From NCBI GenBank assembly GCA_051891335.1, contig JBJFFD010000044.1:321-64320 (forward strand): 64,000 bases of DNA, in the 5' to 3' direction. The stretch comes from Candidatus Scatovivens sp. (lineage in GTDB: Bacteria > Bacillota > Clostridia > TANB77 > CAG-508). The notes under the pieces are model-generated. The model saw only the letters and a list, made by a program, of their open reading frames with translations, did no database searches and was not told the DNA's origin. How positions within the stretch are numbered: position 1 is the stretch's first letter; each line of letters starts with the position of its first letter. A program made the translations under genes and the position numbers. Below, one piece after another: positions 3,780 to 4,785 of the stretch.

Positions 3780-3878
3780 CGTATTATCTACCTTACTTAT
3801 TGTTATTTATTGCTTGATTTATTATAAATTTCATCATATTTCTTGACTTTTTAACTGTAAATAGATTATAATAAATAT

Positions 3879-3970
3879 AGGAAATGACAAATCCACAAAC
3901 GTGGTTTTGCCGAAATTAGTTGTAAAAACTCACACCTAACTCGCCAAAGTTACAGATGTGAGCTTTTTTT
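3879..3970 (+). ncRNA. Putative antitoxin sRNA, module A (type I TA-like)
   Basis: TTGACT (3843-3848), 18 nt, TATAAT (3867-3872). The transcript starts near ATAGGAAATGA, contains no ORF, and ends in the hairpin CTCACA...TGTGAG plus a T7 run (3964-3970). Its 3' part is antisense to the 3' end of the toxin mRNA. Confidence 0.4.
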
Positions 3971-4088
3971 ATTTATGTAGTTGCTTATCAACCCAGTTCT
4001 TATACAGAACTGCTGTCAAGGCAACGTTTAATGTTAAAGAAAACATTAAGGATAATATTAAAAATAGTATCACTTTAACCATAAACAT
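3969..4088 (-). CDS. 39-aa hydrophobic peptide, candidate type I toxin A
   Basis: MFMVKVILFLILSLMFSLTLNVALTAVLYKNWVDKQLHK: one TM helix plus a basic tail. GGAGAGG SD. Own promoter TAGACA (4189-4194), 17 nt, TAGAAT (4166-4171). Too short for the ORF track. Alternative start at 4082. Confidence 0.45.
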   Translation of the reverse strand: MFMVKVILFLILSLMFSLTLNVALTAVLYKNWVDKQLHK

Positions 4089-4389
4089 CACCACCTCTCC
4101 CACGATATTTCGTAAAATTTAGGTGGCAAAACCACATCTGCTTATCATCATTTCCTATGATAATTATTCTACAATATTCTTTTAAATTTGTCTATAAAAT
4201 TAATAGTTTTTAATTAGTTTTTATTTTAATTAGTAATCAATACTTACTAATTCTTGTTACGATTATATAATAAAAGATAGATAATTTCAACGTATTATCT
4301 ACCCTACTTATTGTTATTTATTGCTTGATTCATTATAAATTTCATCATATTTCTTGACTTTTTAACTATAAATAGATTATAATAAATAT

Positions 4390-4478
4390 AGGAAATGACA
4401 AATTCCACAAACGTGGTTTTGCCAAGATAAAGATTTAATAAACCATTAGCTCAGCACAGCAGAATGGTTTATTTTTTT
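4390..4478 (+). ncRNA. Putative antitoxin sRNA, module B
   Basis: Same promoter as module A (TTGACT 4354-4359, TATAAT 4378-4383), but a different terminator hairpin AAACCATT...AATGGTTT followed by a T run. Confidence 0.4.
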
Positions 4479-4596
4479 ATTTATGTAGTTGCTTATCAAC
4501 CCAGTTCTTATACAGAACTGCTGTCAAGGCAACGTTTAATGTTAAAGAAAACATTAAAGATAATATAAAAAATAGTATCACTTTAACCATAAACAT
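4477..4596 (-). CDS. 39-aa hydrophobic peptide, candidate type I toxin B
   Basis: MFMVKVILFFILSLMFSLTLNVALTAVLYKNWVDKQLHK, with one substitution relative to copy A. Same SD and promoter architecture. Confidence 0.45.
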   Translation of the reverse strand: MFMVKVILFFILSLMFSLTLNVALTAVLYKNWVDKQLHK

Positions 4597-4785
4597 CACC
4601 ACCTCTCCTACGAAGATTCGTAAAAATTGGTGGCAAAACCACATCTGCTTATCATCATTTCCTATGCTAATTATTCTACAATATTCTTTTAAATTTGTCT
4701 ATAAAATTAATAGCTTTTCATTAGTTTTTATTTTAATTAGTAATCAATCTAAACCGCAACTTACTATTTTTCATTAAATTATAAA

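Follow-up and report, generated by a model that had tools for sequence, protein, structure and literature searches.

The 64,000 nucleotides (nt) of Candidatus Scatovivens sp. analysed here (assembly GCA_051891335.1, contig JBJFFD010000044.1, positions 321 to 64,320 of the forward strand; G+C content 25%), referred to throughout as the window, probably hold three type I toxin-antitoxin (TA)-like modules, which belong to a family not described before. The type I TA reading is well supported in silico, since the peptide-coding open reading frame (ORF) is under purifying selection, the promoter of a predicted small RNA (sRNA) is conserved, the stem enclosing the Shine-Dalgarno (SD) sequence covaries, and decayed copies occur. 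An original prediction, made from the letters of the window, had pointed to two such modules, here named units A and B, and had likened them to type I pairs. The sequence hallmarks of a 3'-convergent pair were indeed found, and they are conserved across about 150 distinct modules. Units A and B are both real, while a third, inverted module at 5563-5911 had been overlooked.

Units A and B form a tandem duplication (3731-4748) with a period of 507-511 bp, in agreement with the repeat of ~510 bp proposed originally, and their blocks are 95-98% identical. The minus-strand promoters, the plus-strand promoters and the 39-codon ORFs differing by L10F had been correctly described and were located at the positions given below. 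The same holds for the leader of ~70 nt with its SD, which measures ~71 nt and carries GGGAGAGGTGGTG ahead of the ORF ATG in both units, and for the bidirectional hairpin, which sits between the ORF stop and the 5' domain of the plus-strand RNA. Two aspects of the anatomy had escaped the prediction, namely a swap of the hairpin between units A and B, and same-sense repeats shared by leader and sRNA.

3843-4194: unit A, with the sRNA promoter on the plus strand and the toxin-like ORF on the minus strand
3843..3872, plus strand: sRNA A promoter TTGACT-18-TATAAT; the homologous promoter is conserved across modules
3877..3970, plus strand: predicted sRNA A, ~92 nt (folding)
3877-3887, plus strand: single-stranded 5' motif ATAGGAAATGA of sRNA A (folding)
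3888-3911, plus strand: hairpin 1 of sRNA A, followed by a linker (folding)
3929-3962, plus strand: terminator hairpin of sRNA A, then T7 at 3964-3970 (folding)
3929..3962, both strands: shared bidirectional hairpin of unit A, type A (folding)
3969..4088, minus strand: toxin-like ORF A, 39 codons plus stop, MFMVKVILFLILSLMFSLTLNVALTAVLYKNWVDKQLHK (ORF and homologues)
4082, minus strand: alternative start of ORF A, giving 37 amino acids (aa)
4089..4159, minus strand: toxin mRNA A leader, ~71 nt (fold z -3.3, SD paired; alignment A2)
4158..4148, minus strand: motif 1 of leader A, ATAGGAAATGA
4141..4125, minus strand: GCAGATGTGGTTTTGCC of leader A
4127..4121, minus strand: anti-SD GCCACCT of leader A, followed by the inner hairpin
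4101..4089, minus strand: SD region of leader A
4166..4194, minus strand: toxin mRNA A promoter TAGACA-17-TAGAAT, conserved and weaker than the sRNA promoter
4354-4701: unit B, with the sRNA promoter on the plus strand and the toxin-like ORF on the minus strand
4354..4383, plus strand: sRNA B promoter TTGACT-18-TATAAT
4388..4479, plus strand: predicted sRNA B (fold z -3.8), with the 5' domain of sRNA A plus one T
4437-4473: terminator hairpin of sRNA B, type B, which differs from that of unit A
4477..4596, minus strand: toxin-like ORF B, 39 codons, L10F relative to ORF A
4666..4597, minus strand: toxin mRNA B leader, with its promoter TAGACA-17-TAGAAT at 4701..4673

The hairpin segments of the two units (~45 nt; 3929-3962 in A, 4437-4473 in B) are non-homologous and stand between flanks that are 95-98% identical. 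In unit A, the hairpin folds with -19.5 kcal/mol on the toxin strand (z -4.5) and with -10.0 kcal/mol on the sRNA strand.

We propose that a weak promoter would drive an mRNA for a single-helix membrane peptide of 36-40 aa, and that a near-consensus promoter would yield a non-coding RNA of ~90 nt from the opposite strand, the two genes meeting at a hairpin usable as a terminator in both directions. The peptide would be toxic to the membrane when made. The abundant sRNA would pair with the 3' part of the toxin mRNA, across the hairpin region of at least ~47 nt and possibly along its whole ~90 nt, and the paired mRNA would then undergo double-strand-specific cleavage and decay, as in the Bacillus systems that overlap at the 3' end; an overlap of ~45 nt presupposes that both RNAs stop at the hairpin. 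The leader stem would meanwhile hold translation off.

The promoters provide a first line of evidence. The -10 box TATAAT of the sRNA promoter is found in 145 of 148 unique modules and its -35 box TTGAC[TA] in 142, with a spacer of 17 or 18, and the toxin promoter is weaker throughout (on average, 4.1 and 5.0 of 6 positions match). Taken as a class, promoter-like sites show no enrichment in this AT-rich region, with 38 found and 28 expected; those of the modules are nevertheless not due to chance, since the same sites are kept in about 145 of 148 homologous modules elsewhere. The sRNA strand carries no conserved ORF. Its first 40 nt are nearly invariant among 78 homologues and constitute the most conserved part of the module; the predicted sRNA comprises a single-stranded 5' end of 13 nt, hairpin 1 (81% of cells paired, as against 24-51% in slid controls), the terminator hairpin and a T-run with a median of 7.

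In the minimum-energy fold of every unique leader, the SD is paired with an upstream anti-SD (mean z -4.1; -2.8 to -3.3 for the leaders of the window). This stem covaries, reading GCCACC/GGTGGT in the main family (T1), GCCTCC/GGAGGT in the T2b sub-family, where the inner hairpin is lost, and CCACCC/GGGTGG in copy 2 of locus L018, while the inner hairpin of the leader occurs with at least eight stem sequences that are unrelated to one another. Stability is higher on the toxin strand for the leader helices and, in 86 of 103 variants, for the shared hairpin too. The idea that the leader or the sRNA contains a conserved upstream mini-ORF was considered and rejected, as indels in alignment A2 shift the frame between members.

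Stops or frameshifts in homologous repeats had been named in the original prediction as signs against its reading; all 78 unique homologues have an intact ORF. Across these modules, pN/pS amounts to 0.27 in frame versus 0.82 and 5.8 in two control frames, and the variable sites are distributed 17/5/17 over codon positions 1/2/3. Judged by this substitution pattern, the peptide ORF is under purifying selection. The peptides measure 36-40 aa across the family and are predicted to form a single membrane-spanning helix with a short charged or polar tail; the ORFs of the window (39/37 aa in units A and B, 37 aa in module 3) have one long hydrophobic stretch and a short polar tail. Both ATGs of the ATG-TTT-ATG start are conserved, and as three natural variants that lack the first retain the second (alignment A2), the product may be of 37 rather than 39 aa.

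Alignment of 78 distinct copies delimits the module as a sharply bounded unit of ~380 nt, which extends from the toxin -35 box to the sRNA -35 box, with unrelated flanks outside both boxes. A compact unit of this size with internal inverted repeats, found in many unrelated contexts, could in principle be a non-coding dispersed repeat, i.e. a miniature mobile element whose ORF is incidental. We regard this as scarcely credible, because the inverted repeats are internal and start at the transcription starts, the ends of the unit are -35 boxes, and frame-specific substitutions together with intact ORFs show coding constraint.

A scan of one-genome-per-species contigs revealed at least 231 places confirmed by tblastn. 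The 80 loci that were fetched all belong to metagenome-assembled, uncultured gut bacteria, nearly all labelled Clostridia; among them are Clostridium sp. CAG:389 and organisms sampled from Hadza people, rabbits, deer, sheep and chickens. A single allele accounts for 1255 indexed blocks of the assembly collection; its contigs reach 1.67 Mb, and it invariably has the same housekeeping genes on either side. At the protein level, the peptide has 26 unnamed relatives at 90% clustering, and a profile search of 1.84 billion representatives returned 27 clusters only, while neither peptide nor RNA strings were found in the literature searched. A phage or plasmid origin was considered and rejected: tblastn, run with the low-complexity filter on, gave no match among 50,697 phage records or 72,556 plasmid records, DNA and protein matches were likewise absent from the collections, and a single viral contig (L091) matched among 2.9 million. 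Insertion at tRNA genes was likewise rejected, as a tRNA gene lies within 700 nt in only about 5 of 60 loci. In these five of the 60 loci scanned (L001, at 8266-8341, L053, L064, L065 and L039), the tRNA gene lies ~100-700 nt from the sRNA side of the module.

Several observations weigh against the type I TA reading. Most copies are single and occupy conserved chromosomal intergenic positions, mostly between core genes, which would also suit a benign regulated small membrane protein, and the host organisms are uncultured. No toxin family in Pfam (E<=1), NCBIfam, PADLOC or PHROGs, and none among PDB chains, matches the peptides, just as the original prediction had failed to recognise their family, and Rfam returned no reproducible match in the window region at E<=1. 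Furthermore, the formal covariation score of hairpin 1 does not exceed that of shuffles, and the sRNA 5' domain has no significant trans complementarity to the mRNA, its duplexes being no more stable than those of shuffles. Finally, the loci of the 78 modules had been picked by protein similarity, which inflates the intactness of the ORF. For this reason, a second sample of 96 complete modules was drawn by means of a pattern from the non-coding leader, which partly corrects the bias.

In this leader-anchored sample, the ORF is intact in 80 of the 96 modules. Twelve share one common internal deletion, through which the SD and two thirds of the ORF have been lost and the promoters and the sRNA kept, and one has a premature stop and a sRNA that is degenerate as well; the remaining three are a frameshift, a C-terminal extension and a chance match. 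In the toxin-less loci (L103, L108, L114, L119, L121, L133, L135, L165, L168, L169, L188 and L199), the leader is fused after GTGGTTT to the last third of the ORF and the hairpin is kept; the flanks of L119 differ from those of the other toxin-less copies. The retention of the sRNA in ORF-deleted copies is an indirect hint of a toxic peptide that the sRNA would neutralise.

These data also bear on the view that the modules encode a benign small membrane protein, for instance a modulator of a transporter or sensor, whose level is tuned by the sRNA with no TA relationship. In many samples, the commonest allele is found at the same intergenic site of the chromosome, a conserved one flanked by Ham1-like and MatE genes, and the strong purifying selection on the peptide and the almost complete lack of phage or plasmid association would also be expected of such a protein. 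We nonetheless consider it unlikely, given that ORF-deleted copies retain the sRNA and both promoters, and that a locked SD combined with an antisense promoter far stronger than the sense promoter is a signature of type I TA systems. Multi-copy and tandem arrangements also occur, albeit occasionally, and non-homologous hydrophobic peptides are carried on the same RNA framework, so that the kind of peptide, rather than any specific partner, seems to be what selection acts on.

The third module of the window illustrates the last point. It is inverted relative to units A and B and diverged from them:

5563-5911: module 3
5563-5591, plus strand: inferred toxin promoter TTGTTT-17-TATAGT, of a type common in the family
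5598-5674, plus strand: leader (fold z -3.2)
5675..5788, plus strand: peptide ORF, 37 aa, MIESILLETICLLSFGLIAVTFVAIALIITLVIFLSK, family T2
5796-5830: shared hairpin, type C
about 5878..5786, minus strand: predicted sRNA (fold z -4.0)
5868..5848, minus strand: hairpin 1 of the sRNA
5911..5883, minus strand: sRNA promoter TTGACA-17-TATAAT, a perfect match

The leader of module 3 has the 5' motif ATAGGAAAT of units A and B as well as GCAGATGTGG, its start (CATAGGAAAT...GCAGATGTGG) being the same as theirs, and its anti-SD ACCACT pairs with the SD GGAGGTGGTG. Its peptide belongs to T2, a family whose members begin MIE... or MVE... and which is not detectably related to the peptide of units A and B (hhalign probability 0.65%); homology of the two families was accordingly rejected. 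The T2 peptides share with the unit A/B family the leader start, the sRNA 5' domain and, often, the type A hairpin. To judge from these alignments, the same RNA framework is the carrier of at least two non-homologous peptides. The L122-type peptide, in comparison, is placed by profile search in a diverged branch of the unit A/B peptide, or 'NVAL' family.

The hairpin is modular as well, with type A present in 124, type B in 32 and type C in four of 165 modules. The three modules of the window carry types A, B and C, and the tandem pair of L018 carries A and B. That this diversity serves as insulation between neighbours was considered and set aside: tandem or adjacent pairs (the window, L018 and L060/L071) all differ, and the numbers are too small. 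Co-resident pairs on separate contigs are often both of type A.

Within their first ~36 nt, leader and sRNA share ATAGGAAATGA and GTGG-Tn-GCC in the same sense, which at the DNA level corresponds to an inverted repeat starting at both transcription starts. The two arms co-vary in six classes: T4/T4 in the main family, T3/T3 in the second family, T2/T2 in L104, GTGTTACC in both arms of L122, GCTACC in both arms of window module 3, and ACGG in both arms of L018 copy 2 and of L091, where the opposite arm of hairpin 1 has changed to compensate. Fourteen modules are exceptions, being T5/T4. L018 (2900-3700) is a tandem pair like that of the window, with 78% identity over 956 nt; its copy 2 and L091 (3890-4250, the single copy on the viral contig) form a sub-lineage in which GTGG has changed to ACGG in both leader and sRNA.

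The repeats invite the alternative that the sRNA is mainly a trans-acting regulator or a leader mimic, whose invariant 5' domain, a match to the very 5' end of the leader, would have a shared protein, an RNase or a site on the ribosome as its target; the overlap with the peptide gene at the 3' end would then be secondary. The most conserved 40 nt of the sRNA, at its 5' end, are indeed devoid of complementarity to the mRNA, and this domain is same-sense and co-varying with the leader. We find this alternative quite improbable, as the co-variation is module-specific and the co-resident copies of L018 differ, for which a common host-encoded partner cannot account. Moreover, the transitions between the arms give G·U pairs only if both arms are on one toxin-strand RNA, and in the loci examined the sRNA gene never occurs without the rest of the module.

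Because the same sequence is present in both RNAs, leader and sRNA cannot pair via the repeats; the leader is, by the same token, complementary to the toxin-strand sequence downstream of the hairpin. The duplex of leader and 3' region, with helices of 13-14 and 17 bp, averages -44.4 kcal/mol, compared to -31.7 kcal/mol for the mirror-strand duplex and -13.2 kcal/mol for a shuffled leader. The toxin-strand duplex is the better one in 148 of 149 modules, since the transitions by which the arms differ yield G·U pairs there and not on the opposite strand, and in diverged modules the cognate pairing of leader and 3' partner is best. As an extension of the type I TA reading, and as the simplest account of this complementarity, a fraction of toxin transcripts might read through the shared hairpin, and their 3' end, antisense to the sRNA 5' domain, would then pair back with the leader over its first ~36 nt, forming a bipartite helix of 13+17 bp. 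Such a fold-back would protect or inactivate the mRNA, and the sRNA would compete with it. Long-distance 5'-3' interactions and SD/anti-SD stems are recognised features of type I toxin mRNAs (PMC8594479), and we put forward the fold-back of a read-through transcript in competition with the sRNA as a tentative model.

Some results speak against the fold-back. Read-through is required, and the hairpin that would have to be passed is a strong one on the toxin strand (in unit A, -19.5 kcal/mol and U5). A toxin-strand terminator downstream is not conserved, being present in 22 of 139 flanks only, not above the other flank, and a general terminator downstream of the sRNA gene, though present in the window, was for that reason rejected. 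The predicted accessibility of the SD does not rise in the long form, so that opening of the ribosome-binding site by 3' untranslated region pairing was rejected too (unpaired probability of the SD and start region of ~0.18 in the short form and ~0.16 in the long form, the value being higher in the long form in only 23% of modules). Finally, the G·U asymmetry rests on about six positions that are shared by descent, and it could reflect GT skew. In the window, two hairpins are possible ends of such read-through toxin transcripts, as predicted by folding:

3757..3794, minus strand: AT-rich hairpin with U-run, downstream of the sRNA A gene (-12 kcal/mol, z -3.4)
4268-4305, minus strand: second copy of the AT-rich hairpin with U-run, downstream of the sRNA B gene (-12 kcal/mol, z -3.1)

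They lie within a 47-nt repeat that occurs at 3236-3282, 3755-3801 and 4266-4312 with 81-83% identity; both copies past the sRNA genes fold as a 12-bp hairpin, and the copy past the NUDIX gene described below does not. Taken further, the data might describe a portable RNA framework of two promoters, leader, antisense RNA and hairpin, which captured unrelated ORFs and swaps its hairpin cassette, with leader and sRNA competing for one 3' segment of a read-through transcript; we view this composite picture as rather doubtful. We know of no type I system for which a three-way switch of fold-back versus antisense has been described.

By its architecture, the family would work like a type I system, and it belongs to none of the families described. 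The closest in architecture is par, the Fst-RNA II system of Enterococcus faecalis pAD1 and its chromosomal homologues. In par, a single intrinsic terminator serves both of the convergent promoters, the antisense RNA only just reaches the ORF, the SD is hidden by a 5' stem-loop, the 5' end is engaged in intramolecular pairing, and repeats are found in both 5' regions (PMC7472228). Convergent promoters, a shared hairpin, an SD stem-loop and 5' repeats are likewise present in the family, and its predicted antisense RNA, too, only just reaches the ORF; intramolecular pairing of the 5' end would be a further parallel. The par repeats DRa and DRb are direct, however, which renders the two RNAs complementary and allows the antitoxin to cover the start, whereas those of the family are inverted and same-sense. 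Unlike Fst, the peptides of T1, T2 and T3 lack PXXXG and proline, and they do not match Pfam Fst at E<=1. Their search against the PDB, in which we take structures of Fst and PepA1 to be deposited, gave no relative.

As in txpA/RatA, bsrG/SR4, bsrE/SR5 and yonT of B. subtilis, the predicted antisense RNA is encoded 3' of the toxin gene and runs towards it. In these Bacillus systems, a duplex at the 3' end probably leads to RNase III-dependent decay, bsrG/SR4 exhibits in addition a remote effect on SD structure, and the loci lie in prophage-like regions of B. subtilis, in contrast to the mostly chromosomal intergenic modules of the family. Of the likeness to 3'-overlapping and prophage-borne pairs that the original prediction had drawn, the convergent 3' architecture stands, whereas a prophage setting is for the most part not seen, with one match in 2.9 million viral contigs. 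The overlap in the 3'-overlapping Bacillus families takes in part of the ORF (PMC8594479), while the predicted sRNA of the family ends at the stop codon; peptide and RNA similarity are absent.

Within Clostridia, the C. difficile pairs CD2517.1/RCd8 and CD0977.1/RCd11 encode toxins of 34-47 aa, hydrophobic in their N-terminal part and charged in the tail; these pairs are often unannotated, controlled by antisense RNA, and associated with prophages, plasmids or CRISPR (PMC7699646). The family shares with them the class, the small hydrophobic peptide and the charged tail, and it differs in a tail that is not lysine-rich, in the near absence from viral contigs, and in the lack of phage or plasmid matches and of any similarity to toxins of the CD0956.2/CD2517.1 type. 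The phage collection searched presumably includes C. difficile phages. SprA1/SprA1AS of S. aureus overlap at their 3' ends and make functional contact outside the overlap (PMC8594479), and in the family, too, the most conserved part of the sRNA is its non-overlapping 5' domain. This domain, unlike SprA1AS, is without significant complementarity to the start and is same-sense with the leader; pairing with the translation start in the manner of SprA1AS was rejected, as the duplexes were no better than shuffles. The predicted 5'-3' long-distance pairing of the toxin mRNA resembles that of hok/Sok and aapA1/IsoA1, with the difference that the leader would pair, at the 3' end, with the antisense of the antitoxin gene itself, so that antitoxin and leader would compete for one site. 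The hok/Sok and aapA1/IsoA1 systems are Gram-negative, with unrelated peptides and an antisense RNA at the 5' side. Rfam holds 13 families of type I antitoxin RNAs (PMC8594479), none of which matched at or near its gathering score in the window region. A match to RF01823 'rspL', which is not an antitoxin family, was found on unit B only, at 36.9 bits versus 37 and with a 34-nt insertion; it was not seen in unit A or in ten homologous loci and was treated as chance.

The modules of the window lie in a region with traits of mobile and defence-related DNA. On the minus strand, a tyrosine recombinase ORF (Pfam Phage_integrase, 1-~1020) is cut by the window edge and is followed by a DUF3846 protein (1365-2051), a RadC-like JAB protein (2059-2742) and a sigma-70 region-4 protein of 97 aa (2711-3004); positions 1-3004 probably represent an integrative mobile element, with the modules just beyond. 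A NUDIX protein beside unit A (3288-3713, minus strand) matches the PADLOC candidate defence family PDC-S07 (E 2e-11), and an XRE-type helix-turn-helix (HTH) protein of 241 aa between unit B and module 3 (4786-5511, minus strand) matches RmrA and CapH in their HTH parts. The two genes and the modules may jointly form a small defence or addiction island.

This setting, an integrase-bearing element beside defence-like genes, and the short amphipathic or hydrophobic peptides without homologues would be compatible with a secreted or lytic peptide (a bacteriocin, or a phenol-soluble-modulin-like or holin-like peptide) under antisense control. We deem such a peptide very improbable: neither a leader peptide nor a double-glycine motif is present, genes for export, immunity or lysis are absent from the neighbourhood across many contexts, and a predicted single membrane helix with a short charged tail is what type I toxins have.

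Elsewhere in the window, a radical SAM/SPASM 'ACGX system' protein (7555-8595, minus strand; TIGR04340, 480 bits with the cut-off at 400) points to a cluster for peptide modification in the vicinity, and in L196 a radical SAM/SPASM homologue adjoins the module. A stretch of ~500 nt without credible ORFs (5920-6430) contains terminator-like hairpins on the plus strand at 6196-6216 and 6368-6390, is unlike the modules, and may be another non-coding RNA or a regulatory region. Two very large ORFs are also present, of 2490 aa (27566-35038, plus strand) and 2201 aa (52465-59070, minus strand).

To our knowledge, type I TA systems are known from few lineages, their genes being tiny and rarely annotated, and within Clostridia only the prophage- and CRISPR-linked pairs of C. 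difficile have been studied. If the reading presented here is true, a widespread and mostly chromosomal TA system would exist in abundant, uncultured gut Clostridia of humans, rabbits, ruminants and chickens, and its clear sequence signatures make annotation of the modules possible now. The natural variants, comprising two unrelated peptides, three hairpin cassettes, co-varying repeats and toxin-deleted copies, would furthermore be material for the study of RNA recognition, and the modules could supply orthogonal RNA switches or counter-selection markers for anaerobes.

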